Origin: Clostridia bacterium
GTDB taxonomy: Bacteria > Bacillota > Clostridia > Christensenellales > Aristaeellaceae
Length of the DNA stretch: 13,271 bases
NCBI GenBank assembly: GCA_030526225.1
Contig: JAUNDF010000063.1
Coordinates: 1 to 13,271 of the forward strand
Reading direction: 5' to 3'
Shown: piece after piece, positions 1-13,271 of the stretch
Layout of the letters: every line of letters begins with the position of its first letter
Numbering within the stretch: the stretch's first letter is position 1
Position numbers and translations under genes: made by a program
Notes under the pieces: model-generated
What the model was told of the DNA's origin: nothing
The model's input: the letters and a program-made list of their open reading frames with translations, nothing else
Databases searched by the model: none

Positions 1-1
1 G

Positions 2-57
2 CCTACCCCCACCCCGACACCCACACCTACGCCTACACCTACCCCCACCCCGACACC
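2..57 (+). repeat. Direct repeat inside the Pro/Thr-linker coding sequence: an identical 20-mer cctacccccaccccgacacc at 2-21 and 38-57 (period 36 nt).
   Basis: Both copies were read directly from the sequence. The surrounding 1-160 is ACC/CCC/ACA/CCG-rich and encodes PTPTP... low complexity. Confidence 0.8.
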
Positions 58-2254
58 TGTGCCCACCGAAACGCCGGTGCCCACACCGGTGGTGGTGTAT
101 ACCGAGCCCACTGATACCCCCGAGCCCACCGCCACACCCACGCCCGCACCCACCGCCCTGCCTGATGGCTGGCTGAGTGCCGACGAGGCCGCCGCTGCCG
201 GGTACACCTGGAAGCAGGCTGACAACGGCGTGGTCATTACGGGCTACAGCGGCACGGCAAGCAAGCTGACCATCCCCGGCAATATTGACGGCATGGCGGT
301 TACGGAAATCGGCGGTCATGCCTTCTCCGGCAACACCGCGCTCACCGGGGTGGATATCCCCGGCAGTGTGGAGCGCATCGGCGAGCTGGCCTTCGGCGGC
401 TGCATCAAGCTGGAGAATGTCAAGCTGGGGAAGGGTCTGCAGCACATCGGCGAGTGTGCCTTCTTCGGCACCGCCATCGAGAGCATCCGCATCCCCGGCA
501 GCGTGCAGACCATGGGCATCAACCCCTTTGCAAGCTGCAGCAGGCTGAACAAAATCACCGTGGATGCAGACAACAAATCCTTCCGGGTCATCGCTTCCGT
601 GCTGTTTAACACCGATAACAACACCCTGATTTTCTACCCCGCAGGGGAACAGCGCACAAGCTACACCGTCCCCGTGGGCACACAGGCCATCGGCGATTCC
701 GCCATGATGATCAACCCCTATCTGGAAACCGTCATCATCCCCGACACGGTGACCGCTATCGGCAGCATGGCGCTGGATAACCCCGCCATCAAAACCGTGT
801 GGCTGCCCAAGGGGCTGCAGACCGTGGGCGACAGCGCCTTCAACGCCCTCAGCGAGCTGCACATCCACGGCGCAAAGGGCAAGGAAGCCAAAACCGCCCC
901 CACCGCCCAGCTGCTGGAAGCAACCAGCTTTGTCATCACCGACACCAAGGCAGCCGTCACCGTGCCCAAGGGCATCAGCATCACCGATGCCGAAGCACAG
1001 ACCCAGGGCTTCCACTACGATGGCAGCCGCCTGACCCGCTATTCCGGCAGTGAAAAGAATGTGGAGGTCCCCGCGGTCATCGGCAATACCATCATCACCA
1101 CCATCGGCGAGGGTGCCTTTAAGGATTGCACCGATGTGAAGACCATCGCCCTGCCGGATACCATTGCCATCATTGAGGATGATGCCTTCCTCGACAGCGG
1201 TATTAAGGAGCTGACATTGCCCGCAAGCTGTACAACGCTTACAGACCACGCTCTGCGCGGCAAGAACTTTACCAAGATCGCAGTTGCAGAAGAAAATCCA
1301 ACTTTCTCTGCGGACAAAAACGGCATATTGTTTAATAAATACAAATCAAGGTTGGTCCGCTATCCTGCGGGGAAAGGCGGCAGTTACACCATCCCTGAAA
1401 ACATTTTTGTCATTAAGCCATATGCATTTGAGGGTGCCACTATTTCCAGCCTAACCTTGAGCAAAAACACGCGTAACATTTAGCCCAATGCATTGATTAG
1501 CATGCCCAAGCTTACCAAGATTACCGTGCACAAGGACAACAAAGTCTATGTGGTTGAGGACAATGTTCTCTATGAGAAAGACGGTCACAAACCGGTCAAA
1601 ATTCTAGCCAAAGCCATTAAGGCAGGCATGACTGTTCAGTTTGGCCGCTACGAGCAGGATGCCAACGAAGCCAACGGCCCTGAAGTCATTGAATGGCAGG
1701 TGCTGGAGGTTAAGGGCGGCAAGGCGCTGGTGATTAGCAAGTATGGCCTGGATGCACAGCCGTATAATACATCAGGAACGGTTGTCACTTGGGAAAATTG
1801 CACCCTGCGCACATGGTTGAACAATGACTTCCTGAATAAAGCATTCACCCACGCAGAACAAGCAGCCATTGAGTTGACCAATGTGGATAACAGCAAGAAA
1901 CAGGGTTATGACAAGTGGACTACCAATGGCGGCAATAATACGCTTGATAAGGTATTCCTGCTAAGCTATGCAGAAGCAAACAAATATTTCGGGGTAACAA
2001 GGGAGAATAGTAACAACACAAAATCTCGTGTACATCCCACAGACTATGCAGTAAAACAAGGCGCGTATGCTAGCAGCAGCGAAACATCCGAAGGCGCGAA
2101 AGCCGGGTGGTGGTGGCTGCGGTTGCCCGGCAGCTCTCAGGGCTATGCCGCGTACGTGAGCGCCGACGGCTCTCTCCGCGACAGCGGTGTCAGCCGCGGT
2201 TCTGGTTGTATTCGCCCCGCTTTCTGGGTCAATCTGGAATCTGGAATCTTCTAA
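2..2254 (+). CDS. Surface protein, 5'-truncated by the window edge: Pro/Thr-rich linker, BspA-type leucine-rich repeats (LRR_5) and a C-terminal DUF6273-like domain. Read through one in-frame TAG at 1481-1483. Under table 11 it splits into 2..1483 and 1493..2254.
   Basis: The frame is open from base 2 and encodes (PT)n, so the GTG at 59 is not the true start. LRR_5-type repeat motifs recur (ITGYSG..LTIPGNIDG..VTEIGGHAF, IPGSVERIGELAFGGC, IPDTVTAIGSMAL, LPDTIAIIEDDAF). The repeat unit spans the TAG in the same frame: LTLSKNTRNI[TAG]PNALISMPKLTKITVHKDNKVYVVEDNVLYEKDG. The DUF6273-like part (about 1631-2245) reads FGRYEQD..IEWQVL..TWENCTLRTWLNNDFLNKAF..VFLLSYAEANKYF..GWWWLRLPG..IRPAFWVNLE. The terminator is TAA at 2252-2254. 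Confidence 0.75.
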
Positions 2255-2350
2255 TCTTTAATCGAATGCGATTGAAATCAGGGGACGGACGAGGGTTGAC
2301 AGCAATCTTGAATCAAAAAAGCTGCAACTGTATCAAACACCGGCATGAAA

Positions 2351-2403
2351 GGGCTTCGCGGTGCAGCCGCGCCGAAGGCGCCTTTTTCCCGCCGTAAGGC
2401 GGG
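2351..2403 (+). terminator. Candidate intrinsic terminator or leader hairpins between the LRR gene and the PP2C operon.
   Basis: GCGCC-GAA-GGCGC (about 2369-2381) is followed by CTTTTT (2382-2387). A perfect CCCGCC-GTAA-GGCGGG hairpin follows at 2388-2403. The stems are short and no energy calculation was done. Confidence 0.4.
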
Positions 2404-2455
2404 TCCGATTATGTATGATTTTTCAATATTCATAACAGTTGAAAGGAGGCAACCT

Positions 2456-3250
2456 ATGCAATACCAATTAACCGTATTCCAGGCCAGCCATCAGGGTGCG
2501 CGGGAATACCAGCAGGACCGGATTGCAGCAACGCCGCAGGATGCGCAGCGGGGGATGCTGACGGTGCTGTGTGATGGCATGGGCGGCATGAAGGACGGTG
2601 AGCGCTTTGCATAGACCGGCTGTGAAAGCATGCTGCGTACCTTTAATGCATTGCCCGCCGGCGGGGACATGGCCGATACCTTGTACACCTGCTACAAGCG
2701 GGCCAATGAGGAAGCGCTGAACATCCAGAGCGAGGATGAACGCGAGGCGGGGGGCAGCACCATCACCGCCGTGTATATCCGCGGGGATGAATGCGTGTTT
2801 CTTTCCTCCGGTGACAGCCGCATCTACCTGTGCCGGGGCGGCAGCCTGATTCAGCTTTCCCGCGACCAAAACATGGGCGCGCTGCTGGATGTGCGGGCCG
2901 GGCTGGGGGATATTGACTGGTCCATGGCAAAATCCGCCATGGGCAGAAGCTCCCTCACCGGGCATCTGGGCATGAATGGCGGCCAGCCCTGTGACATCAG
3001 CCCATAGCCCTTCCGCCTTGTGCGGGGGGATGTGCTGCTGCAAATGTCGGATGGCGTGTACGGCACGTTGTCGGATGCGGAGATTCTTGCCTGCATGCAG
3101 GGCGCGGAAAACCCGGCGGAGAGCATCATCGCCGCCACCATCGGCAAAAAGAAACCCCGGCAGGATAACTGCTCGGTGATTGTAACCTATGTGCAAAGCC
3201 CTTATTTCCAGGGTGAAAAAATCACCCGGCACAAGAGAAAAAGGAGGTAA
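2456..3250 (+). CDS. PP2C-family Ser/Thr protein phosphatase (soluble), read through two in-frame TAG codons (2612-2614, 3005-3007). Under table 11 it fragments into 2456..2614, 2630..3007 and 3020..3250, all in the same frame.
   Basis: The SD GAAAGGAGG at 2441-2449 lies 6 nt before ATG 2456. PP2C motifs are spread over all three fragments in the correct order: REYQQD, CDGMGG, GGSTITAV, GDSRIYL, MSDGVYG, QDNCSVIV. The terminator is TAA at 3248-3250. Confidence 0.8.
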
Positions 3251-3256
3251 TGTACC

Positions 3257-4558
3257 TTGGCAAATGAAACGAATACTACATTCAACAACTCTAACCCAAA
3301 TGAAACGGACGAAGAATTTGACACTATCGTCTAGAAAGACGATGGTAAGGAAACTCCGGTCAACGAAACAGAATCAGGTGACGGAAATGATGCTGCAACT
3401 ACAGATATAACAACGGACGAAGCAACAAAAGATGCAGCGAACGAAACAACGAATGAAACCGCAGATGAAACGACAGACGGAGAAAACAACAAGAAATCCG
3501 AAGAACAGGTGACACAAGATAACAATTTCGTTTCAATCTCGGGAGGAGGCTTGACCGTAACAGGGCAGGATAACCAGCAAGCAGACAAACCTGCCGAAGG
3601 AGAACAGGTGACCACCGAGGCTGTTGTTCAAGCTGCCCCCATCGAAGCCCCCGCCAAAACCGGCGGCTTCAATGTATGGCCGCTGGTGATTGTGCTGCTG
3701 ATTGCGGCCCTGGGCGCAGCCGCCTTTGTGCTGTGGAAGAAGCGGCGCGCCGTGCCTGTTATCAGCGATGTGGGTGCCACGGAAGCGGGCGGCGATGTGG
3801 GCATTGGCATCCGCGTGGGCGGCGCCCAGACCATCGGCAAGCGCAGCGATCAGGAGGATTCCCTGTGCTACTCCAACTGGCAGAATGTGGCCGAGTATAA
3901 CGAGCGCGGCCTGCTGGCAGCGGTATCCGACGGCATCGGCGGGCTGGAAAAGAGCGAGCTGGCCAGCCAAACAGCCATGCGCAACATGCGGGTGCGCTTC
4001 CTGAAGCAGGACCCCGCCGTGGCCCCGGCAGACCGCCTGCTGGAGCTGACCGGTGCCGCCCAGCAGGATGTGCTTGCCCTGAACCATGCATTGCCCCAGG
4101 GCAGCAGGGTGATGGGTGCCACGCTGGTCAGTGTGCTGATTCAGCGCAACCTGCTGTGGCTGTCCTCTGTGGGCGACAGCCGCATCTACCTGTACCGCGC
4201 CGGTGCCATGCTGCCCCTCAACCGGCCCCACGTATTCGGCAAGGAGAACCGGGAGGATGCGGTGCTCACCGGCGGTGGCCGTCCCTCCGATGCACGACAG
4301 GATAAAAAGCTCACCGCCTACCTCGGGCAGGAAAACCTGCGCAAGGTGGACCGCAACGTGAACCCCATCAAGCTGATGCCCAGCGACCGTGTGCTGCTGA
4401 TGAGCGACGGCGTGTTCGGCACCGTGGGCGAGGACGAGATGGTCCGCTCCATGGGCCTTAGCCCCGACTTGGCCGCCAAGGACATCATCCGCATGGTGGA
4501 GGCCGCCAACAAACCCCATCAGGATAACGCCACCGTGGTGGTTATCGCACTGGATTAA
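3257..4558 (+). CDS. Membrane-anchored PP2C-family Ser/Thr phosphatase: acidic Thr/Asn/Glu-rich N-terminal tail, one TM helix and a PP2C domain. The start is uncertain. The core 3509..4558 is solid. The longer model starts at TTG 3257 and reads through TAG 3332-3334.
   Basis: PP2C motifs are present: GKRSDQEDS, SDGIGG, GATLVSV, GDSRIYL, MSDGVFG, HQDNATVVVI. The TM helix VWPLVIVLLIAALGAAAFVLW (about 3674-3736) is followed by KKRR, placing the PP2C domain in the cytoplasm. The SD AAAAGGAGG (3239-3247) lies 9 nt before TTG 3257, and the frame stays open into the PP2C domain except for one TAG. Alternative starts are GTG 3509 (no SD) and TTG 3551 (GGAGG at 3542-3546, only 4 nt away). The terminator is TAA at 4556-4558. 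Confidence 0.7.
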
Positions 4559-4571
4559 AGGAGGCAGCAAC

Positions 4572-5840
4572 ATGAAAAGATTCTTTGCCTTGCTGCTGGC
4601 CGTGCTGCTGCTGGCACTGCCGGTGCTGGGTCTGGCAGCAACCTATCAGGATGTGCGCGACAGCGTGGTGCGCATTTATGCTATCGGTTCGTATTACGTC
4701 CCCCAAGAAAATAGATATATAAAGGTTCCTTGGGTAGGCTCTGCCTTTGCCGTGGGCAAAAAGGGCGAGAAGGTGCAGTACTTTGTTACCAACCACCATG
4801 TAACGGGCAAGATTGGCGAATTGGATATTATTCCTGGAAGTGGCGGCATATTGGGCCAGCTGGAGAGCGTGGAGCTGTATGTTGTATATGATGATGTCAC
4901 CAACATGCTTGGTGCCCGTGTGGTGGGATGCCATGACACTGCTGACCTCGCAGTGGTGAGGCTTAATAGTGCCACGGATGTCCGCAAGCCCGTTACCTTC
5001 CATGACCCCAATGCAGATTTAAACAGCTATCAGGGTGAAGCAGTGTACGCATTGGGCTTCCCTGTCGATGGCGATGTTTTCATGAATGCAGACGCACAGG
5101 AATCATTGGCTTCTGCACCTTTTCAGGTGACGGTAAACAATGGCATAATACAGCGCATCCTACCTTCATCAGATACATTCGGCGGCGAAGTAGTTCAACA
5201 TGGTGCTGACATATCCGGCGGCAATTCCGGCGGTCCCCTTGTTACGGCGGACGGCAAGGTCATCGGCGTTAATACTGCCGGTGCGATGGAAGGCAAATAC
5301 TATAGCGCCTTGTCCTACCGCGAAGTACTGAAGATGCTGGATGATTATAATGTCCCCTACCAGACAGGCGGAGCTGGGCTGATGGGCAGCTCCCCGGTGA
5401 CATGGATTATTGCCGGTGTGCTGGCTGTGGCAGTTATCGTGGTGGTGGTGGTGCTGGTGCGCCAGAACAAGAAGGGCACCGCTGTGCCCGATGCCCCTGC
5501 GGCAGTCGCTCCCGCAGCGGATGGTGAAAAGCGTACCCTCCGCGGCGAAACGGGCGCCCTTGCCGGCAAGAGCTTTGTGCTGACCTCCGGCAAGCCGCTG
5601 GTGCTGGGCCGTGACCCGGGCCAGTGCAATGTGCTGTTCCCCAAGGATACGAAGAAGGTCAGCCGCGTTCACTGCACCATCACCCTCACCGGCGGCAAGG
5701 TTACCGTGACCGACAACCGCTCCACCTGCGGCGTGTTGATTGACGGCAACCCCATCCCCGCCGGCGGCACAAAGACATGGCACCGCGGTCAGGTGCTTCA
5801 GATTGGCTCCGATGCCGAACAGTTTACCCTGCATTCCTGA
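4572..5840 (+). CDS. Secreted trypsin-like (S1/Trypsin_2-type) serine protease domain, a TM helix and a C-terminal cytoplasmic FHA domain.
   Basis: The SD AGGAGG at 4558-4563 lies upstream of ATG 4572. The signal peptide reads MKRFFALLLAVLLLALPVLGLAA. Catalytic-triad contexts are TNHHV (His), DLAVVRL (Asp) and GGNSGGPL (Ser codon 5226-5228). The TM helix is WIIAGVLAVAVIVVVVVLV (about 5401-5460). FHA motifs read LVLGRD...SRVHC...NRSTCGVLIDGNPI. The terminator is TGA. Confidence 0.9.
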   Translation: MKRFFALLLAVLLLALPVLGLAATYQDVRDSVVRIYAIGSYYVPQENRYIKVPWVGSAFAVGKKGEKVQYFVTNHHVTGKIGELDIIPGSGGILGQLESVELYVVYDDVTNMLGARVVGCHDTADLAVVRLNSATDVRKPVTFHDPNADLNSYQGEAVYALGFPVDGDVFMNADAQESLASAPFQVTVNNGIIQRILPSSDTFGGEVVQHGADISGGNSGGPLVTADGKVIGVNTAGAMEGKYYSALSYREVLKMLDDYNVPYQTGGAGLMGSSPVTWIIAGVLAVAVIVVVVVLVRQNKKGTAVPDAPAAVAPAADGEKRTLRGETGALAGKSFVLTSGKPLVLGRDPGQCNVLFPKDTKKVSRVHCTITLTGGKVTVTDNRSTCGVLIDGNPIPAGGTKTWHRGQVLQIGSDAEQFTLHS

Positions 5841-5876
5841 TGAAGCATTATCACATATCAATAGGAGGAAATATTC

Positions 5877-6425
5877 ATGAGCAAGCAGTATTTCGACCAG
5901 AGCTACATTTCCGGCGTAACCGACGAAACCATGGCCGCCACCATGGTGGATGCTACCATGGTGGATGACGACGAATCCACCGAGCCCATCACCAACGAAA
6001 CGGAGAATGACGGCTACGGCGAAACCGAGGTTCTCCGCCCCGCAGGCTTTGAGGATGCCCGCCGTGACCCCGTGGTGGGCTGGCTGGTGTGCATCTCAGG
6101 CACAGAGCTGGGCGCCGATTTCCGCATCCACGAGGGCTGGAACACCATCGGCCGCGACCCCTCCAACGACATTGTCATCAACGACCCTGCCGTATCTGCC
6201 GACAAGATGTGCACTCTGCTGTACGATGACCCCACCAAGGCATTCATCATCGCCCGGGGCAACGGCCGCAATCCCTCCCGCATCAACGGCCGCCCGCTGG
6301 TCAGCGAAAAGGAGCTGGCACCCTTCGATCACCTGACCATCGGCAACACCGAGCTGATTTTCGTCCCCCTGTGCGGCGAACAGTTCTCCTGGGAAAGCTT
6401 CCGCAAGGACAACGAAAAGGCATAA
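5877..6425 (+). CDS. Small soluble FHA-domain protein with an acidic, Thr-rich N-terminal tail.
   Basis: The SD AGGAGG at 5863-5868 lies 8 nt before ATG 5877. The FHA core reads GWLVCISGTELGADFRIHEGWNTIGRDPSNDIVINDPAVS...NPSRINGRPL...LTIGNTELIF. The terminator is TAA. Confidence 0.9.
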   Translation: MSKQYFDQSYISGVTDETMAATMVDATMVDDDESTEPITNETENDGYGETEVLRPAGFEDARRDPVVGWLVCISGTELGADFRIHEGWNTIGRDPSNDIVINDPAVSADKMCTLLYDDPTKAFIIARGNGRNPSRINGRPLVSEKELAPFDHLTIGNTELIFVPLCGEQFSWESFRKDNEKA

Positions 6426-6461
6426 CCATGACCCTGCGCAACATTGCATAAAGGAGAGTGA

Positions 6462-8303
6462 TTGTGCCCCATGAGCGAAATGTGCTACCGGTGCATGACC
6501 GAAACCCTTGAAAACGGCACCTGTACCCGATGCGGCAAGCCGAGGTACGTGCCCGAGCCCTCCAATGCCGATGCACTGCCTGTGGGCACCCGGCTGGATA
6601 ACGGCAGCCCCGTGGTGGGCGCCATCCTTGGCCGGGGCGGCTTTGGCATTACCTATGTGGCGCTGGATACGGAAGTGAATCCCCCGCAGAAAATCGCCCT
6701 GAAGGAATACATGCCCCGCCACATGGCCACCAGAAGCGGTCTCAATCTGCAGGTGGACCCTGCCCATCAGGAGGAATACGAGCATTCCCTGCGCGCCTTC
6801 GCCCGGGAAAGCAGCGTGATCGACCGCCTGAAGGAGCACCCCAACATCGTGAAGGTGTTCTATTCCTTTAGGGAAAACAACACCGCCTACTACGGCATGC
6901 AGTTCCTGGAGGGCATGAGCCTGAAGGAATGGATTAAAAAGAGCGGCAAGCCCATGTCCGGCAAGGAAGCATGCATGCTGCTCAATCCCATCATGGATGC
7001 GCTGGCCTACACCCACAAGCAGGGCCTGCTGCACCGTGACATCAGCCCCAACAACATCTTCCTGTGCGGCACCGGCCAAAAGGACGTAACCGCCATGACC
7101 CCCAAGCTGATTGACTTCGGTGCCGCCCATGCCTATGTGGGCGATTATACCAAATCTCTTGCGCTGATTAAGACCAAGGGCTTCACCCCGGTGGAGCAGA
7201 TTCTCTACGGCGCCGAGTGTCAGGGCTCCTGGACGGATGTGTACGCCTTCTGCGCGGTGTTCTACTACGCCATCACCGGCCGCAATCTGCCCGACTCCAA
7301 GGATCGCTACATCGACAACGCCACCTTCCTCACGCCCAATGAGCTGGGGGCAAAAATCCCCAAGGAGGCCGAGAACGCCCTGCTCTCCGGTCTGGCCATC
7401 AACTACAAGGAGCGCACCCAGAACATGGCCGAGCTGCAGGAGAAGCTGTGCAAGGCCTTCGGGATTGCGCCCTACCACTACACCAAAATGGTGGAAAGCA
7501 CCCCGGTGGATCCCGACCCCGGCCCCGCGCCTGTCCACACACCGGTACCCAGACCCGTCGAAGCGCCGGTGCAGCACGAGGCCCCTGCGGCGGTCAAATC
7601 TGCCGACACCCGCATGCGGGACAGAATCCTTGGGGGCATGCTGGAGCTGATTATCTGCTACGCCGCGGCCTTCCTGCTGGTGCCCGGTTGGCAGGCACTG
7701 CTCTACGGCCTTGCCGGCATGACGCTGCTCAACACCGTGCTGTGCTCTGTGGGCGGCGGCGGTACCCTTGGCATGCGCCTCAGCCGCCAGCGGCTGGTGG
7801 ACCAGTCCGGCCGTGTGCCCAGCGTGGCGGTATCCCTTGCATACAGCCTGCTGACGGCGTTCTTCCCCTTCTCCGTGCTGGATTGCCTTGTCAACAGCGG
7901 CGACAAGCCCTGCTGGCGTGAAAAGATGCTGGCGGTGCAGACCGTTTCCTCCGGGGAGAAGGCGCCTGAGGCTCCCGCTGCCGCTGCCCAGAAGAAGCCC
8001 GTCGGAAAGGCTTGGCTGGAGACGGCCGCCGGTGAACGGATTGACGTGGAGAACGGCACGCTGGTCACCCGCCACGGCAAGGACTGCAAGGGCTACAAGC
8101 ATACCATCATCCTCAAGGATGAAATGGTATCCGGCAAGCATTGCGAATTCTATCAGGCAAGGGGCGGCTGGTACGTGCAGGATCTGTACTCCACCAACCA
8201 CACCTACATCAACGGCTCTGCCATTCCCCCCGCGGCTGAGGTTCCCCTTTCCGACGGTACGCGGGTGACCATCGGCGGCACCGACATGACCTTCCATTGC
8301 TGA
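6462..8303 (+). CDS. Hanks-type Ser/Thr protein kinase with an N-terminal CxxC..CxxC zinc ribbon, a central RDD-like multi-TM module and a C-terminal FHA domain.
   Basis: The zinc ribbon CYRC...CTRCG lies at 6483-6533. Kinase motifs are GRGGFGITY (from 6630), ALKEY, HRDISPNN (catalytic Asp 7038-7040) and DFG (7113-7121). The RDD-like part reads RILGGMLELIICY...GTLGMRLSRQRLVDQSGRVPS. FHA motifs read SGKHC...DLYSTNHTYINGSAI. The start is TTG 6462 (GGAG at 6453-6456) or ATG 6471. The terminator is TGA. Confidence 0.9.
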   Translation: MCPMSEMCYRCMTETLENGTCTRCGKPRYVPEPSNADALPVGTRLDNGSPVVGAILGRGGFGITYVALDTEVNPPQKIALKEYMPRHMATRSGLNLQVDPAHQEEYEHSLRAFARESSVIDRLKEHPNIVKVFYSFRENNTAYYGMQFLEGMSLKEWIKKSGKPMSGKEACMLLNPIMDALAYTHKQGLLHRDISPNNIFLCGTGQKDVTAMTPKLIDFGAAHAYVGDYTKSLALIKTKGFTPVEQILYGAECQGSWTDVYAFCAVFYYAITGRNLPDSKDRYIDNATFLTPNELGAKIPKEAENALLSGLAINYKERTQNMAELQEKLCKAFGIAPYHYTKMVESTPVDPDPGPAPVHTPVPRPVEAPVQHEAPAAVKSADTRMRDRILGGMLELIICYAAAFLLVPGWQALLYGLAGMTLLNTVLCSVGGGGTLGMRLSRQRLVDQSGRVPSVAVSLAYSLLTAFFPFSVLDCLVNSGDKPCWREKMLAVQTVSSGEKAPEAPAAAAQKKPVGKAWLETAAGERIDVENGTLVTRHGKDCKGYKHTIILKDEMVSGKHCEFYQARGGWYVQDLYSTNHTYINGSAIPPAAEVPLSDGTRVTIGGTDMTFHC

Positions 8304-8317
8304 AAAGAGGTATTTAT

Positions 8318-9886
8318 ATGATGAAGAAGATTGCGGCACTTGTGCTTGCACTGTGCATGCTGACCATCTGCTTCGGCGCCTTTGCCGCGGGCAGCAACAG
8401 CACCATGAGAATCCTCGGCGGCTCCATCGCCCCGGATAACACCACCACCCTCAACGTGTTTATCCCCGTGACCACACCTGTCAGCGCTGATGAGCTGGAT
8501 GTGCAGGTGGACGGCACCCCCGTGACCATCACCCAGCTGACCGGCGTGCCCACCACCTGGGTGGTTCTGCTGGACAGCTACAGCGAATGGGGCCCTGAGC
8601 GCCTGGACCACATGAAGGATGTGGCGCTGGAAATCATCTCCAAGAACATGGGCAGTGCCGATAACGGTCTGGTCCTGACCGGCGGCAGCGCCTGGAAGAA
8701 CAGCAAGGATCTGCAGTTGGGCAACATCGGCACGGTGAAGGAGGCCATCAAGGCATTTGACGGCAAGAAGTCCGGTGTCACCCCCAATGTGCCTGCGCTC
8801 CATTTCCTCACCGATATGTGGGCCGTTGAGTACATCAACCCCCGCGTGTGTCTGGTGGTCATCAGTGACGGTGCCACGGTGGCCAAGTCCAGCTGGGACA
8901 GCGTGCAGGAAAAGCTGACCAGAACGGATGCCGCCCTGTACGGCATTGCGCTGGTGAAGAACAACGAAAAGCACAAGACCGATGCCCTCCGGACCGTGGC
9001 CGAAAGCAGTCAGGGCGGCAGCTTCTACCGCTATGACAAGAGCGTAAAGACTGAGGATGCGCAGAGCTTCTGCATCAACACCGCCGCCAACATTGTCACG
9101 GCCGAGGCCTGCCAGATGCGGCAGCTGAGCATTCCCGGCACTGTGTTTACCGCCGTACCCAGCCGCTACACCATCGCCCTGAAGAACTCCAATCCTCCGC
9201 TGGATGCCGAATATGTGCTGACCGAGAACGACAAGAAGGGCTACCGCATCGGTGAACCGGCCGAGGGCGAAGAAGCAACGGAAAACGCAGGCGGCGTCAT
9301 CGGTGCAAACGTGCCTGAGGCAGAAGATCCCTGGTACACGAAGACCGAATACCTGGTGGTGGCCGGTCTGGCGCTGGTGCTGGTCATTCTGCTGATTGTG
9401 CTGGTGGTATCCGGCAAGAAGAAGAAGGCCAAGGCTGCCGCTGCCGCCGCTGCTGCTGCCGCAGAAAAGGCAAAGCAGGAGCAGGCCGCTGCAACCGAGG
9501 TCAATGCACCCTCTGCCTTTGTGGCGGATGATGACGGCGGTGCCACTGAGGTTTTGACGCCTCCCGCCGGTGCCCGCCCCACCTGCCGCCTGCAGCTGGC
9601 ACAGGAGAACAGCAGCAACGTGTACACCGCCGAATTTGCCAAGAATCTGCTGGTTGGCCGCAGCTGCCAAAAGGCTGACCTGACCGTGTACCCCGAGGAC
9701 AAGAAGATTTCCGGCCTCAACAGCGAGTTCTCCTTCCACAATGGTGTCATGACCCTGAAGGACCGCGGCTCCACCAACGGCACCTTCCTCAACGGCTCCA
9801 AGCTTACCGGCGAGGTGCGCGTCAATCAGCATGACGTTGTGAAGATGGGCACCACCCGGTTCCGCGTTACCTGGACGGTACTGTAA
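8318..9886 (+). CDS. Signal peptide, a vWA-like extracytoplasmic domain, a TM helix, a Lys/Ala-rich juxtamembrane tract and a C-terminal FHA domain.
   Basis: The SD AAGAGG at 8305-8310 lies 7 nt before ATG 8318, which I prefer over the track's TTG 8297. The signal peptide reads MMKKIAALVLALCMLTICFGAFA. vWA-like strands are WVVLLDSYSE and CLVVISDG, but the MIDAS motif is not a canonical DxSxS, so the vWA call is moderate. The TM helix is YLVVAGLALVLVILLIVLVV (about 9350-9410). FHA motifs read LLVGRS...ISGLNS...DRGSTNGTFLNGSKL. The terminator is TAA. Confidence 0.8.
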   Translation: MMKKIAALVLALCMLTICFGAFAAGSNSTMRILGGSIAPDNTTTLNVFIPVTTPVSADELDVQVDGTPVTITQLTGVPTTWVVLLDSYSEWGPERLDHMKDVALEIISKNMGSADNGLVLTGGSAWKNSKDLQLGNIGTVKEAIKAFDGKKSGVTPNVPALHFLTDMWAVEYINPRVCLVVISDGATVAKSSWDSVQEKLTRTDAALYGIALVKNNEKHKTDALRTVAESSQGGSFYRYDKSVKTEDAQSFCINTAANIVTAEACQMRQLSIPGTVFTAVPSRYTIALKNSNPPLDAEYVLTENDKKGYRIGEPAEGEEATENAGGVIGANVPEAEDPWYTKTEYLVVAGLALVLVILLIVLVVSGKKKKAKAAAAAAAAAAEKAKQEQAAATEVNAPSAFVADDDGGATEVLTPPAGARPTCRLQLAQENSSNVYTAEFAKNLLVGRSCQKADLTVYPEDKKISGLNSEFSFHNGVMTLKDRGSTNGTFLNGSKLTGEVRVNQHDVVKMGTTRFRVTWTVL

Positions 9887-9893
9887 CAATACA

Positions 9894-9935
9894 CGCCGCC
9901 GCATGGCTGTGCTGTGCGGCGGTAAATTCCTTTTA
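9894..9935 (+). terminator. Candidate rho-independent terminator after the vWA-FHA gene.
   Basis: A perfect 8-bp stem pairs CCGCCGCA (9896-9903) with TGCGGCGG (9915-9922) around an 11-nt loop. A T-rich stretch TTCCTTTTAT (about 9927-9936) follows. It begins 8 nt after the TAA at 9884-9886. Confidence 0.55.
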
Positions 9936-9958
9936 TCATTGAAAGCGGGTGTTATTGT

Positions 9959-10864
9959 ATGTACAACAACCCTCAGCAAACGCTGGCAGGGCTTTGGGGC
10001 TTTGTTGCCGGCTATTTCGCGGTGATTGCCGTCATCAGTGCGGCCATTACGGTGCTGACCATCATCGGCTTGTGGAAGACCATTGCCAAAACAGGGGAGC
10101 CCGGCTGGAAGGCCCTCATTCCGATCCTGAATGAATATGTCCTGTGCGACCGCTGCTGGGAAAAGAACGCGTTCTGGGTGATGCTGGGCGTGGCCCTGGG
10201 CTGCGGTGTGCCCGTGGTGAACATCATCTGCAGTATTGCAATGGTGGTGCTGTGGGTGATGCTGTGCATCCGCATCAGCGCTGCCTTCGGCAAAGAGCTG
10301 CCCTTCGCCATCGGCATGATTTTCCTGCCCCCGGTGTTCTTTATGATTCTGGGCTTTGGCAGCAGCCGCTACATCGGCCCCTCCAGCTTCAAAATCCCCA
10401 CCCCCGTGCCGGAATACGGCAACAAGGCCAGGGCTGATTACAGGCCCGCAGTGGATGACATGGACAAAACCGTCCCCGCACCCCGTCCTGTCATGCCGCC
10501 CCCTGCCCCTGTGCAAGTCCCCGCGCCTGCTCCCGCAGAGCAGCACTATCATGTGCTGACGGTTGAAATGAAAAATGTGCACAGCGGCACCGTGTACAAA
10601 AAGTCCGTCAAGGGCAGCAAGCTGAATGTGGGCCGCAGTGCATCCAAGTCCCAGCTGGTCATCGCCGATGATGCCAAGCTGTCCGGTGCGCATATTCAGC
10701 TGAAGTGCAAGGACAACACCCTGTACATCACCGACCTTGAAAGCACCAACGGCACCGCCGTCAACGGCAAAAAGCTGACCCACACCGCCCCGCTGAAGCC
10801 CACCGACACGGTGACCATCGGCAAGGCACAATACACCATAAAATGGAAGTACAGCCTGAAATAA
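9959..10864 (+). CDS. DUF5684-like polytopic membrane domain, a Pro-rich linker and a C-terminal FHA domain.
   Basis: The sequence GLWKTIAKTGEPGWKALIPILNEYVL...ISAAFGKELPFAIGMIFLPPVFFMILGFGSSRY matches my recollection of the DUF5684 family signature. FHA motifs read LNVGRS...LSGAHIQL...DLESTNGTAVNGKKL. The SD before ATG 9959 is weak. The terminator is TAA. Confidence 0.85.
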   Translation: MYNNPQQTLAGLWGFVAGYFAVIAVISAAITVLTIIGLWKTIAKTGEPGWKALIPILNEYVLCDRCWEKNAFWVMLGVALGCGVPVVNIICSIAMVVLWVMLCIRISAAFGKELPFAIGMIFLPPVFFMILGFGSSRYIGPSSFKIPTPVPEYGNKARADYRPAVDDMDKTVPAPRPVMPPPAPVQVPAPAPAEQHYHVLTVEMKNVHSGTVYKKSVKGSKLNVGRSASKSQLVIADDAKLSGAHIQLKCKDNTLYITDLESTNGTAVNGKKLTHTAPLKPTDTVTIGKAQYTIKWKYSLK

Positions 10865-10885
10865 GGCGCGACAAGGAGGAGAACC

Positions 10886-13119
10886 ATGTCCAGCAAACTT
10901 AGACAAACCACCGCTCTCCTGCTTGCCCTTGTGCTGCTGATGGCAGCCATGCCCGCCGGGGCAGAGGTAAAGCTGTGGCGGTGCCAATATGATCAAACAG
11001 TTAATTTTGACACGAAATGCAGTGAGTGCGGAAGAAAAAAGGAGTATGCTATAATCAATCCCGCACAAGCGGTTATATCTGTTGATTTAAGAAAACGTAT
11101 GGCATATGAGCGATACGATATGAGTTATACCGGTCGTATCGATAGCTCATGGGAAGAATTAGGTTTAGAACCTGTTCCGTTGCATTATACAAAAGGCTAT
11201 ACATACTGCAAGCTGAAGGATGGAACCATAGAAATCTATAGAATAGATATTTCTTTCGGCGAAGAAAACTGTACCATTCCAGAAACCATTGATGGATATA
11301 AGGTTACTGCAATAGGTGACAATGCACTAGAATAGGGCTATGACCTGCAGACTGTTACCATCCCTGCTAGTATAACCTATATTGGAGGAAACCTACTCTG
11401 CAATGCAGATGAATTGAAAACAATCATTATTGATGGCGAGTCACAGTATCTTTAGGTTGTGGACGGCGTTTTGTTTACAAAGACAGATAAGCGTTTGGTG
11501 TGCTATCCGCCCAAGAAAGAAAACAAGCATTATTCAATTCCTGAAGGGACAAGGATATCGGTTCGACAGCGTTTGCCTATGCGCAGTTTTCTTCCTTGAC
11601 TATCCCTGACAGTGTGAAGGTGCTAGAGGATAACGTGTTTTATGAATGCGATAAGTTGGGCAGTGTTACTCTCCCAAGCAGTGTAGAGGCAATTGGTACG
11701 AATCCGGGATATGGTGACAAAGATTACAGAAGGAACAGAAGGACCAAAAGGCTGCCTATCAAGGTTGATAAGAAAAATCCATATTTTGAAACTGTCGATA
11801 ATTCACTGATTTCAAAAGTAGACAAGCGATTGATTAGTTGCTGGCAGACGGGTTCGTGTACAGTTCCTGATAGAACTGTAACTATCGGTGAAAAAGCATT
11901 TGCTTAGACTAAAGTTACAGAAGTTATTCTGCCTGATTCGGTCAAGAGCATAGAAAACAAGGCTTTCGAACGATGTGAACAGCTTACTGAAATCAGACTT
12001 CCGGAAAATTTGGAAAGCATAGGAGAATATGCATTTGCATCCTCCGGTTTGACATCTGTCACCTTTCCAACATCACTGCAAACAATTGGCGACAGGGCCT
12101 TCAGAGGAAGCAAGCTAAAGGAAATAGATTTTGGTGAAGGTTCTCCCCAATTGGGTGTTTAGGTATTTTCGTATAATGATAATTTAATAAATGTAGAAAT
12201 ACCCGGGAATATTAATCAATTGCCATTTTGTACCTTTAACAGTTGTGAAAATTTGGAACAGGTTTTGATACGCGAAGGCGTGAAGAACATTGGCAATCAG
12301 GCATTTTATTCTTGTGTGAGTCTGAAGAGCGTTATCATTCCTGACAGTGTCATAGGTAACAATATTTTTCAGGACTGTCCAAATGTGATTGCCACGGTAA
12401 ATGAAGGATCTTATGCGGAGTAGTATTGCAAAAACAATGGTATAAAGTATGTGCTTAACACAGAGTATGTACCTGCTGTGTTGGAAAATGCGCCCTACAA
12501 GCTGAATCTTCCCATTGCTGATGGTCACTATATAATGAAAATGATATATGGTGACAAATGCACAATCGAAATGGTAGATGTTCCATAGGGAGCACATGAA
12601 GCATGGATACGGACAACAGAAGGATATGACTATAGCTATGTTTATGGCAATTAGTTATATTTCGAATCGAATGAGTTCATGAAAGAGGGCACAAGCTTAG
12701 CATATGTGCTTGTGTATGATGACAACGATAATGTGTTGTATTCGTATCCTCTTGAGATTACGGCAACAAGCCCTAATGGAACGTTTGATGTAGCTGTTGT
12801 CAGCGTTGAACTGTTTGATGGGCCAACAGAAGAAGCAAAATGGGTCCGCATACAATGCAAAGCAGATTCTCGGGATGTGCAAAAAGCAATAACCTCGGGA
12901 GAAATCAAATCTCTTTCATGTAACGGTGGATTTGCGTTCACTGCTTTTGCGAGCAAGCCATATCTTGGTTAGGATAATAATTTGATTTTTTAGTATCAAC
13001 CGTCTTCAGATGAGGGAACTTTCAAGGTTGTGATGGATGTTTTTGCCAAAGGCTACAGCAATGCCGAAGTTACAGTGGAATACACTGTGAAAGATGGTGA
13101 ACTTACCTTCACCCCCTAA
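10886..13119 (+). CDS. Secreted BspA-type LRR (LRR_5) protein with an uncharacterised C-terminal beta-rich region. It is read through nine in-frame TAG codons and needs one -1 frame change near 11551, which may be an indel, an assembly error or pseudogenisation.
   Basis: The SD AAGGAGG at 10873-10879 lies upstream of ATG 10886. The signal peptide reads MSSKLRQTTALLLALVLLMAAMPAGA. LRR_5 motifs continue across the first five TAGs (11333-12421): AIGDNALE[TAG]GYDLQTVTIP, SQYL[TAG]VVDGVLFTKTDKRLVCYP, IGEKAFA[TAG]TKVTEVILPDSVKSIENKAFERC, LGV[TAG]VFSYNDNLINVEIP, EGSYAE[TAG]YCKNNGIKY. After the last four TAGs (12586, 12652, 12970, 12991) only the open frame continues. The frame is 2 up to 11551 and 1 afterwards. 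Frame 1 stays open, apart from TAGs, to TAA 13117-13119. I checked this codon by codon for 11881-12720 and 12961-13119 and relied on the supplied ORF track elsewhere. Confidence 0.65.
11540..11600 (+). other. Frameshift site within the LRR gene (frame 2 to frame 1, net -1).
   Basis: Frame 2 reads YSIPEGT and then degenerates (RISVRQRLPMRSFLP) to TGA 11597-11599. Frame 1 from 11551 reads KDIGSTAFAYAQFSSLTIPDSVKVLEDNVFYEC, which is the expected LRR_5 continuation. Frame 1 is closed upstream by TGA 11542-11544, so the switch must lie within 11545-11553. Confidence 0.75.
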
Positions 13120-13187
13120 GTCTCCCCCCACCTCTGCACCCCCTTCCCACCGCCACCCTACAACCACCCCCAAAGGAGGCAAAAACC

Positions 13188-13271
13188 ATGAATATGGAAG
13201 TTGCGATGTTTTTTATGGTTTTGGGTACACTCATCATTGCGCGAATGATTACCTCGTTTTTCAACAATGAC
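13188..13271 (+). CDS. Start of a small hydrophobic or membrane protein, 3'-truncated by the window edge.
   Basis: The SD AGGAGG at 13174-13179 lies 8 nt before ATG 13188. The product begins MNMEVAMFFMVLGTLIIARMITSFFNND. Only 28 codons are visible. Confidence 0.45.
   Translation, partial: MNMEVAMFFMVLGTLIIARMITSFFNND

Follow-up and report, generated by a model that had tools for sequence, protein, structure and literature searches.

A conserved kinase/PP2C/FHA signalling cassette of Clostridia with in-frame TAG codons that are probably translated

Hanks-type Ser/Thr kinases autophosphorylate and also phosphorylate threonines in disordered linkers, FHA domains bind the resulting phosphothreonine (pThr), and PP2C phosphatases reverse the modification. 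Several described systems are built from these parts. In the T6SS (type VI secretion system) threonine-phosphorylation pathway of Pseudomonas aeruginosa (PpkA, PppA, Fha1), a membrane Hanks kinase is combined with a PP2C and an FHA protein, pThr-FHA docking controls an envelope machine, and an extracellular vWA sensor domain is carried by PpkA. The mycobacterial fhaA-fhaB-pstP-rodA-pbpA-pknA-pknB operon unites several FHA proteins with a membrane PP2C and membrane Hanks kinases, and in Sulfolobus ArnA (Zn-finger-FHA) and ArnB (vWA) form an FHA/vWA complex under phosphorylation control by the kinases ArnC/D and the phosphatase PP2A. Co-occurrence of vWA, PP2C and Hanks kinase characterizes the TerY-P triad, in which, as the 2012 paper by Anantharaman, Iyer and Aravind reportedly has it, the vWA is a standalone soluble protein; the Deinococcus operon DRA0331-0334 has the composition vWA-STPK (Ser/Thr protein kinase)-FHA-PP2C. 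In oral Actinomycetales, threat sensing by the Esr pathway (bioRxiv 2026, PMC13622651) relies on a sensor at the surface, a vWA protein, a kinase with its phosphatase and an FHA output phosphorylated on a linker Thr; both a MoxR ATPase and a filament sensor of beta-propeller type are needed, and the pathway has a link to Esx secretion. The present analysis deals with a seven-gene cassette of related composition at positions 2456-10864 of a 13,271-nucleotide stretch from a Clostridia bacterium (assembly GCA_030526225.1, contig JAUNDF010000063.1, positions 1 to 13,271), which is referred to in its whole length as the window.

The seven consecutive genes (G1-G7) are all located on the + strand and encode a soluble and a membrane-anchored PP2C, a serine protease with transmembrane (TM) helix and FHA domain, a small FHA protein, a kinase-FHA protein, a vWA-like TM-FHA protein and a DUF5684-FHA protein. 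This holds when TAG is read as a sense codon: with the standard code, five of the seven are intact on the + strand and G1 and G2 are interrupted by TAG, so that seven intact genes result only if TAG is translated. With TAG as sense, the entire window is made up of contiguous + strand genes. Intergenic gaps from G1 through G8 amount to 6, 13, 36, 36, 14, 72 and 21 nt. The original prediction, made from the letters of the window, had described seven tightly spaced genes in this arrangement; spacing (6-72 nt within the cassette), order and domains agree with it, but the intactness of G1 and G2 depends on the reading of TAG, a codon which it did not mention. Shine-Dalgarno sites, operon structure and the presence of TAA among the stops used ruled out a eukaryotic contaminant of ciliate type. 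The window makes up essentially all of a 13,272-bp contig. The public record of G3 is MDO4484478.1 (metagenome-assembled genome named 'Clostridia bacterium' at NCBI), the contig having been annotated there under code 11; two Logan contigs of run SRR24915835, representing an independent assembly, are 100 % identical to the window.

The cassette is conserved, chromosomal and cellular, and is widespread in Firmicutes: it is found in Clostridia, and a core version occurs in other Firmicutes. Its closest relative, contig k141_282577 of ENA ERZ27234656 (L095; related contigs are designated by L numbers), stems from an independent sample and harbours all seven genes in identical order, sharing 44-70 % identity with the window at the protein and 65-78 % at the nucleotide level. 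On this contig of 16.1 kb, the tail of a DUF6273 gene is located upstream of the cassette, and DUF6273 genes followed by Peptidase_C11 and priA are located downstream. A second tier of relatives (L004/L005, L090, L093, L094 and L096; 31-52 % identity) displays PP2C, TM-PP2C, protease-TM-FHA, small FHA, kinase-FHA and vWA-TM-FHA genes in order, and rearranged cores (two PP2C, protease-TM-FHA, small FHA and one or two kinases) were found in L006-L009, L091/L092, L097, Cohnella (L010) and Clostridiales (L012). The scan of GTDB genomes used a generic active-site pattern (GNSGGPL), and 77 of its 80 loci represent ordinary HtrA-like proteases, with L010-L012 being useful. A gene-neighbourhood search, as suggested with the original prediction, thus finds the cassette syntenic in many independent contigs, its gene order being retained on more than 10 of them from Clostridia, which refutes chance co-occurrence.

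The core adjoins ffh-rpsP-rimM-trmD-rplS in L006/L007, dprA-topA-trmFO in L012, urease genes in L010 (Cohnella yongneupensis, a cultured species), where the kinase carries PASTA and FG-GAP domains, and DUF285/LRR surface proteins in L097; a two-component system also occurs among the cassette neighbours in relatives. In L091/L092 (1250-5004), a cassette variant directly follows two genes for dynamin-like GTPases, the second of which has a C-terminal FHA fusion in L092 and is shortened by a TGG-to-TAG polymorphism in L091. Only one match to the marker G4 was obtained in 2.9 million IMG/VR viral contigs, and this contig (L098, 1-11806; IMGVR_UViG_3300029703_000029) is a prophage/host junction with genes for a PP2C and a Zn-ribbon-FHA protein at the contig edge, beside capsid and portal genes on the opposite strand; single-protein scans of IMG/VR with G3 and G5 yielded nothing relevant. 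The cellular and chromosomal status follows from this near absence of the marker from viral contigs and from the chromosomal location of the orthologs. None of the cassette proteins reached a trusted cutoff of NCBIfam, PADLOC-DB 2.0 returned only generic kinase (PD-T4-6, mad6) and protease-domain matches and none for G1, G2, G4, G6 and G7, and the literature search retrieved no publication naming this cassette. The view that it is not a characterised, named system is thereby upheld; it is an uncharacterised conserved variant of kinase/PP2C/FHA signalling.

All five FHA domains (G3-G7) are located C-terminally, and the FHA, PP2C and kinase assignments of the original prediction, and with them its logic of one writer, two erasers and five readers, hold in Pfam searches (scores are whole-protein bits throughout). 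In the single-pass proteins, a signal peptide or N-terminal helix precedes the ectodomain, which is joined by a TM helix and a subsequent K/R-rich stretch to the FHA domain; hydropathy and K/R counts predict a cytoplasmic location of the FHA domains of G3 and G6 and of the PP2C domain of G2, in agreement with the topology initially proposed. The residues contacting pThr are canonical in the FHA domains of G3 and G7.

The kinase G5 (6462-8303, + strand; NCBI gene call beginning at 6471) combines a Zn-ribbon (CYRC-x9-CTRC), a Hanks Ser/Thr kinase domain, a Pro/Thr-rich linker, an RDD-like membrane domain and an FHA domain (Pkinase 93.7 bits, FHA 54.9 bits). The catalytic residues (VAIK-type Lys in IALKE, HRD and DFG) are present. 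Zn-ribbon, kinase and FHA domain had been correctly recognized from the letters, whereas the RDD domain scores 17.3 bits and thus below its cutoff of 24.1, though PF06271 is recorded for many full-length homologs. An AlphaFold2 model (predicted local distance difference test, pLDDT, 86.2) comprises two TM helices and a third hydrophobic segment, split into two short helices between two isolated beta-strands. No PASTA domain was detected in G5 by Pfam, and the PknB_PASTA model NF033483 is matched with 96.3 bits (cutoff 450).

Both phosphatases contain the DGxGG, SDG and QDN motifs. G1 (2456-3250, + strand) is a soluble PP2C of 264 codons (PP2C_2 32.7 bits) with in-frame TAG at 2612-2614 and 3005-3007; under the standard code it is broken into fragments of 52, 125 and 76 amino acids, as in public gene calls. 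It is nevertheless colinear with intact orthologs (42-56 % identity) and has kept its catalytic motifs (DGMGG, 2573-2587; SDGV, 3047-3058; QDN, 3161-3169), SDGV and QDN both lying 3' of the second TAG, and the three TAG-bounded segments share 63, 61 and 46 % identity, respectively, with the L095 ortholog. G2 (3257-4558, + strand; 49-64 % identity to orthologs) is a membrane-anchored PP2C with an acidic N-terminal tail, a TM helix (residues 140-158) followed by a K/R cluster (KKRR) and a cytoplasmic PP2C domain (PP2C_2 40.9 bits). Its TTG start at 3257 is preceded by the strong Shine-Dalgarno sequence AAAAGGAGG, and its TAG (3332-3334) is internal to the gene, since the N-terminus encoded upstream of it (MAN..N..NP.E..IV) is common to the L090/L094 orthologs.

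G3 (4572-5840, + strand; no TAG) is composed of a signal peptide, an HtrA/DegS-like serine protease domain (Trypsin_2 69.1 bits), a TM helix (residues 278-296) and a cytoplasmic FHA domain (41.5 bits). Among 31 family members, the catalytic triad (H76, D125, S219) as well as G346 and H367 of the FHA domain are invariant, and R347 and S364 of the latter are conserved in at least 90 %. The AlphaFold2 model of G3 (pLDDT 81.9) retrieved DegS-deltaPDZ, Deg1/2, HtrA1 and MarP as top Foldseek matches (target TM-scores 0.7-0.77). HtrA-type proteases work as oligomers. As in HtrA/DegS proteases and MarP (Rv3671c), an HtrA fold, an intact catalytic triad and membrane anchoring are apparent; however, the HtrA/DegP/DegS family has at least one C-terminal PDZ domain and none was found in G3, neither by Pfam nor in the model, the TM helix and FHA domain following the protease instead. 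NCBIfam models of HtrA type are matched with at most 45 bits (cutoffs at least 250). Judged from the model, G3 is an HtrA-type protease carrying a TM helix and FHA domain in place of PDZ, implying control from the cytoplasm.

G4 (5877-6425, + strand) is a small soluble FHA protein (Yop-YscD_cpl 43.0 bits, FHA 28.7 bits) with an acidic, Thr-rich N-terminus containing T50 in the motif GETEV (6018-6032) and with the C-terminal sequence FVPLCGEQFSW (6360-6392). In a 40-sequence alignment, T50 is conserved in at least 90 % within an otherwise variable linker; this figure supersedes a regular-expression count of the Thr motif (33/119), which understated the conservation. T50 is therefore a likely phospho-site as judged from conservation. 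The G4 family is large and unnamed (3,012 representative clusters at E <= 1e-10, clustered at 50 % identity); among its 150 best matches, 133 share the C-terminal motif phi-phi-P-phi-C-x3-F-x-W and 106 possess an N-terminal Zn-ribbon, which is absent from G4 of the window.

G6 (8318-9886, + strand) contains a signal peptide, a divergent vWA-like ectodomain, a TM helix (residues 346-364), a K/A-rich linker and an FHA domain (40.9 bits). The vWA assignment taken by itself remains below threshold (17.9 bits, Pfam cutoff 23.8); at the family level it is supported, G6 being colinear with positional orthologs that score above threshold as VWA or VWA_2, and the G6-family profile matching collagen VI vWA (E = 4e-5). 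The same profile matches the FHA domain of ArnA (E = 9e-8), further FHA profile matches including FhaA, Rv1747 and GarA, and the TM-linker-FHA part of G6 aligns over the entire FhaB/FipA model with a score under its cutoff. Two ATEV motifs are present in the linker of G6 (9491-9502 and 9542-9553), and in six of eight vWA-FHA orthologs a G-E-T-E/Q-V motif lies 10-15 residues before the FHA domain. The last gene, G7 (9959-10864, + strand), encodes a DUF5684 polytopic membrane domain (64.0 bits; 3-4 TM helices), a Pro-rich linker and a canonical FHA domain (54.9 bits). The 72-nt gap preceding it contains, as had been noted, a candidate terminator or attenuator, i.e., a 13-bp GC-rich hairpin with weak U-tract (9895-9923, + strand; RNA fold of -33.4 kcal/mol and z = -4.3 for region 9884-9961). 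Strong hairpins (z = -6.3) devoid of sequence similarity to that of the window are present in the equivalent gap of L095 (7711-7825). These intergenic hairpins could serve in termination, attenuation or mRNA processing.

From these features, an envelope-associated Ser/Thr phospho-signalling cassette operating by pThr-FHA docking may be envisaged, with TAG translated in the window organism and its closest relative; this model as a whole is favoured here with reasonable, not high, confidence. Docking is proposed because a near-invariant Thr motif is located in otherwise variable linkers of G4 and of the vWA-FHA orthologs. The membrane kinase G5 would be activated, probably jointly with receptor kinases or surface proteins that carry LRR_5 or DUF6273 and are encoded at the edges of the cassette, and would phosphorylate linker threonines including the 'G-x-T' Thr upstream of the FHA domains of G4 and G6. 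The C-terminal FHA domains of G3, G5, G6 and G7 could then dock on pThr, whereby the four membrane proteins would be drawn into a single multivalent complex. Such docking might cluster or activate the protease, vWA-like and DUF5684 parts, so that extracytoplasmic proteolysis and binding would be controlled inside-out; signalling in the outside-in direction via the same contacts is conceivable as well. G4 may act as a GarA/OdhI-like switch or adaptor, and the soluble PP2C G1 together with the membrane PP2C G2 would reset the system. More speculatively, FHA-driven cytoplasmic clustering may replace the PDZ activation of G3. With TAG read as sense in these two organisms, G1 as well as an unshortened G2 would be produced, leaving the cassette functional.

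Several observations weigh against this model. The pThr-contact residues deviate in three of the five FHA domains: the His is lost in G4 (VSADKMC), GK takes the place of GR in G5, and His is changed to Asn in G6; judged by these residues, some of the deviating domains may be incapable of pThr binding. The metal ion-dependent adhesion site (MIDAS) of G6 is degenerate (DSYSE, 8573-8587, rather than DxSxS), rendering classical metal-dependent ligand binding doubtful. G7 was encountered at the equivalent position in L095 only (44 % identity) and not in the more distant cassettes, and, given the hairpin, may be transcribed separately. For G5 and G7, the topologies are predictions: the hydropathy of G5 yields three TM segments, an odd number that would place its FHA domain outside. 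An external FHA domain of G5 was rejected on the basis of the AlphaFold2 secondary structure and on biological grounds; from the model we infer that the third segment is a re-entrant element and that kinase and FHA domain reside on one side of the membrane.

The same parts could also serve surface threat-sensing or defence, analogous to Esr or vWA-MoxR systems, with variable surface domains detecting phage, epibionts or competitors and a kinase/FHA relay triggering a protective response such as surface proteolysis or remodelling of the membrane. Ectodomains are indeed fast-evolving and cytoplasmic parts conserved, as illustrated by BLASTP of G6 versus its L004/L090 orthologs, the alignment being confined to the FHA part; kinases associated with the cassette bear variable LRR_5, DUF6273, PASTA, FG-GAP and MORN sensors, one variant is located beside the dynamin-like GTPases, one of which is FHA-fused, and Esr provides a precedent with its sensor, vWA/MoxR, kinase/phosphatase and FHA output. 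G5 also resembles defence kinases, at the generic domain level only. However, the cassette has neither a MoxR ATPase nor a beta-propeller sensor, toxin or nuclease effector (no AAA+ protein as MoxR partner was found in the window or the related cassettes), PADLOC yields no defence-system protein beyond the generic kinase and protease domain matches, and the contexts are of the housekeeping type rather than defence islands, a resolvase being near only one variant. A role in threat sensing is accordingly unlikely, though it deserves some weight.

Regulation of envelope growth or division after the fashion of mycobacterial FhaA/FhaB-PstP-PknA/PknB, with the FHA proteins bringing factors of wall synthesis or division to a phosphorylated kinase and the ecto-protease processing wall hydrolases as MarP does RipA, appears rather improbable. 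At least two FHA proteins, a membrane PP2C and one or more membrane Hanks kinases are encoded in one operon, the TM-linker-FHA part of G6 spans the FhaB/FipA model, the Cohnella kinase has PASTA domains, G3 structurally matches MarP/Rv3671c, and the FHA matches include FhaA, Rv1747 and GarA; yet the FhaB and PknB_PASTA models of NCBIfam are matched with at most 53.8 (cutoff 125) and 96 bits (cutoff 450), respectively, G5 is devoid of PASTA, and neither rodA nor pbpA nor fts genes adjoin the cassette in the loci inspected. Both this and the threat-sensing reading rest on the same biochemistry as the docking model.

That TAG is probably translated in this lineage is suggested by the distribution of the codon. 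Thirteen in-frame TAG codons are present in the window, one in G0 (1481), the partial gene upstream of the cassette, two in G1 (2612, 3005), one in G2 (3332) and nine in the downstream gene G8/G9, none being found in G3-G7 including the kinase. In-frame TAA or TGA codons are absent from the window genes, and all nine of these end in TAA or TGA, none in TAG. With an expected TAG share of 45-50 % of the possible single-base nonsense changes, the probability that 13 of 13 nonsense changes are TAG is 3e-5 to 1e-4, as calculated from the codon usage of the affected genes. L095 contains six in-frame TAG codons at sites unlike those of the window (3005, 9698, 9851, 10317, 11653 and 11845), and none of its 13 genes ends in TAG; one of the six lies in the middle of the G3 ortholog, which is split in public calls into 193 and 225 amino acids and shares 55 % identity with G3 before and 59 % after the TAG. 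Since two related organisms from independent samples share in-frame TAG but not its sites, translation or efficient suppression of TAG is regarded as a probable trait of the lineage. TAG terminates none of the 22 genes in the window and L095, compared with 14 of 58 (24 %) in more distant relatives, as counted on called genes.

Second-tier contigs (L004, L090, L093, L094, L096) have no in-frame TAG and no TAG terminator in 37 genes, including about 10 non-cassette genes; orthologous stops being non-independent, this count effectively corresponds to one cassette plus about 10 flanking genes (P ~0.01), and a TAG-depleted intermediate stage is suggestive only. L091/L092 were considered as a further case of recoding and rejected, since a plain TGG-to-TAG polymorphism separates them and TAG stops are in use in that organism.

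The case for translated TAG is opposed by the residues aligned to the codon, which are mixed (A, E, G, D, K/S) and fit no single amino acid: orthologs show A, E and G, positions within repeats E, D, A/K and S/G, and a comparison with ~120 LRR_5 homologs and the L095 pairs gives Gly at one conserved LRR position and otherwise E, D, A, K, S and Y, an ambiguous picture. Moreover, neither tRNA(CUA) nor any other tRNA is encoded in the 13-16 kb of the window and L095; scanning the window plus six related loci for tRNAs, and the window and L095 with Rfam, gave no match. A frameshift in G8/G9 demonstrates some decay or sequencing error, and conservation past the TAGs would by itself be compatible with very recent nonsense mutations. 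As for the amino acid inserted, the aligned residues lean towards Glu, Asp, Gly and Ala, and Gln, Glu or pyrrolysine are all possible.

Alternatively, the window could be part of a mobile element with recoded TAG (code 15-like), be it a phage, a prophage or another type, into which a host cassette was taken up; the TAG-containing genes would then be made only with a suppressor tRNA and the kinase/FHA genes under the standard code of the host. In the literature searched, TAG recoding is documented, apart from archaea, only for phages (code 15, TAG to Gln; Borges et al.) and prophages, including one in Oscillospiraceae, TAG suppressor tRNAs having been detected in only 40 % of the TAG-recoded phage genomes (Borges et al.). 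Genome-wide TAG-to-pyrrolysine recoding is known from some archaea (Kivenson et al. 2025). As in these phages and archaea, in-frame TAG occurs in intact genes of the window and L095 and TAG is unused as terminator. Moreover, TAG is unevenly distributed, with none in G3-G7 (2,040 codons) versus four in G0-G2 (1,428 codons; P ~0.03), DUF6273 and LRR_5 have PHROG relatives, one of which is annotated as Hoc-like, and the GC content drops sharply at 10.9 kb. In contrast to recoded phages, however, the two contigs are bacterial-looking, chromosomal, high in GC and free of phage genes: PHROGs matched only generic domain families and no hallmark gene (terminase, capsid, portal, tail) in the 13.3-kb window, L095 likewise contains no phage hallmark gene in 16.1 kb and ends with Peptidase_C11 and priA, the complete window, searched for near-identical sequence among 50,697 phage genomes (INPHARED), gave no match, and the marker is almost absent from the viral contigs mentioned above. 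The orthologous cassettes are chromosomal, the GC content of 55-62 % differs from the low-GC genomes from which recoded phages are described to arise, and the TAG in the G3 ortholog of L095 indicates that the TAG-free pattern is not conserved. The chance that a recoded element accounts for the window is therefore slim, and neither the conflict module suggested in the original prediction nor a mobile-element reading finds support in PADLOC, PHROGs or genomic context.

A standard code with G0, G1 and G8/G9 as pseudogenes of a decaying remnant, in which G3-G7 and perhaps a shortened G2 would still function, is very improbable despite the G8/G9 frameshift, the ordinary TGG-to-TAG nonsense polymorphism between L091 and L092 and the NCBI annotation under code 11, since 13 of 13 interruptions in the window and six of six in L095 are TAG next to a single indel (chance at most ~1e-4 for the window alone), TAG stops are missing from all 22 genes as compared to 24 % in the more distant relatives, catalytic motifs and 46-63 % identity are kept past the TAGs, and the best start of G2, with its Shine-Dalgarno sequence and ortholog-shared N-terminus, lies upstream of its TAG.

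With translation of TAG in the lineage preferred, it is tentatively proposed, at slightly less than even chance, that UAG is a genome-wide sense codon in an uncultivated Clostridia lineage comprising the window and L095, with L004, L090, L093, L094 and L096 at a prior 'TAG-free' stage of codon capture. The cassette may, with similar reserve, expose this trait because it is conserved enough to show genes running across TAG. Translated TAG is not reported for any bacterium in the literature searched; if true, this would be the first reassignment of the amber codon in a bacterium, breaking the rule of UGA-only reassignment of bacterial stops, and gene calling would be affected for the lineage, the genes of which are now split or shortened in public annotation.

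BspA-type LRR_5 genes flank the cassette on both sides, as anticipated. G0 (2-2254, + strand) belongs to a surface-protein gene that is truncated at the contig end, leaving its 3' part, and comprises a Pro-Thr (PT) repeat, BspA-type LRR_5 (166.5 bits) and DUF6273 (102.7 bits), with domains flanking its TAG (1481-1483) on both sides. It is open from base 2, its first 19 codons forming the PT repeat, and its tail shares 59 % identity with the gene located upstream of the cassette in L095. The contig starts inside the PT dipeptide repeat (2-150), a probable cause of the assembly break. Between G0 and G1, a terminator-like hairpin (2369-2381, + strand) is followed by CTTTTTCC; the fold of the wider region is unexceptional (z = -1.5).

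In L004 (12968-15784), a kinase-TM-PT-LRR_5 protein, its kinase facing inwards and its LRR outwards, is encoded directly after the vWA-FHA gene, and fusions of Pkinase with LRR_5 or with DUF6273 recur among database matches. The flanking LRR genes are probably linked functionally to the cassette, because in relatives a second Hanks kinase, encoded immediately behind vWA-FHA, has LRR_5 as its ectodomain. G0 may itself be the ectodomain of a receptor kinase like that of L004, since its PT repeat followed by LRR_5 resembles the linker layout of that kinase. As a separate observation, 'LRR receptor kinases' consisting of a Hanks kinase, TM helix, PT linker and LRR_5/DUF6273 occur in these Clostridia, often beside the cassette (L004, P0058, P0072, P0089, P0095, P0124, P0289).

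Downstream of the cassette, G8/G9 (10886-13119, + strand; LRR_5 211 bits) constitutes one secreted BspA-type LRR_5 gene with signal peptide, small Cys motif, LRR_5 and a C-terminal domain. Its nine in-frame TAG codons in ~745 codons (11333, 11453, 11905, 12160, 12421, 12586, 12652, 12970 and 12991) represent the highest density in the window, and its GC content of ~40 % contrasts with 58-63 % within the cassette, the fall at 10.9 kb being sharp; together, GC drop and TAG density suggest a different evolutionary history or recent acquisition of G8/G9. The 1-nt frameshift is situated near 11552-11560 in an ACAAGG stretch, and a perfect LRR repeat (YSIPEGT / DIGSTAFAYAQFSSLTIPDSV) results when both frames are joined; it could reflect sequencing error, real decay or programmed frameshifting. 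The downstream secreted LRR_5/DUF6273 proteins have an N-terminal module in common, i.e., a signal peptide together with the motif W-[KR]-C-x(10-13)-C-x-E-C-G-[KR] (window 10886-11060; L095 8738-8920 and 10948-11130). A further gene start (MNMEVAMFFMVLGTLII..., 13188-13271, + strand), preceded by the Shine-Dalgarno sequence AAAGGAGG, is cut by the contig end.

The cassette represents a widespread, unstudied wiring in which ectodomain or membrane modules (PDZ-less HtrA, vWA, DUF5684) are each tied via one TM helix to a cytoplasmic pThr reader, with receptor-like kinases bearing LRR_5, DUF6273 or PASTA ectodomains alongside. It provides a model, open to test, of how gut Clostridia might control surface proteolysis and adhesion inside-out, and the cultured carrier Cohnella yongneupensis makes it experimentally accessible.

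Comparison with the T6SS pathway reveals the shared combination of membrane Hanks kinase, PP2C and FHA, but the cassette loci are without T6SS genes and the host is of Gram-positive type; the vWA, located on the kinase in PpkA, is here part of the separate TM-FHA protein G6, five FHA proteins and two PP2Cs are present, and the best score for TagH/Fha (TIGR03354) is 34.5 bits (G7) against a cutoff of 120. The mycobacterial operon differs in that rodA/pbpA are absent from the window and its relatives and that the FHA proteins are here combined with ecto-protease, vWA and DUF5684; the FhaB/FipA equivalog (NF049868) stays at or below 53.8 of the 125 bits demanded, and the domain order of PstP is opposite to that of G2. 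With respect to the GarA/OdhI switch proteins, G4 is a small soluble FHA protein whose conserved N-terminal Thr (T50) is a candidate phospho-acceptor, but the canonical His is lost and the OdhI equivalog (NF041660) is matched with 19.2 bits (cutoff 200).

An ArnA-like N-terminal Zn-ribbon is shared by most members of the G4 family. ArnA/ArnB are, however, archaeal and cytoplasmic and repress the archaellum at the transcription level, whereas here the vWA is extracytoplasmic, the partners are membrane-tethered and the phosphatase is PP2C rather than PP2A. The likeness to the TerY-P triad, invoked in the original prediction, reduces to a loose analogy: PP2C (G1, G2) and Hanks kinase (G5) co-occur with vWA here also, but the vWA of G6 is a signal-peptide-bearing ectodomain with degenerate MIDAS fused to TM-FHA, and no tellurite-resistance genes (TerD/TerZ etc.) were found in the window or in the related loci with inspected neighbours. 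With Esr, finally, the parts list is alike, but MoxR, the beta-propeller sensor and the link to Esx are absent. Since NCBIfam equivalog cutoffs are widely missed, defining partner genes are absent and architectures differ, the cassette belongs to none of the systems compared, but it would work like other kinase/PP2C/FHA modules.

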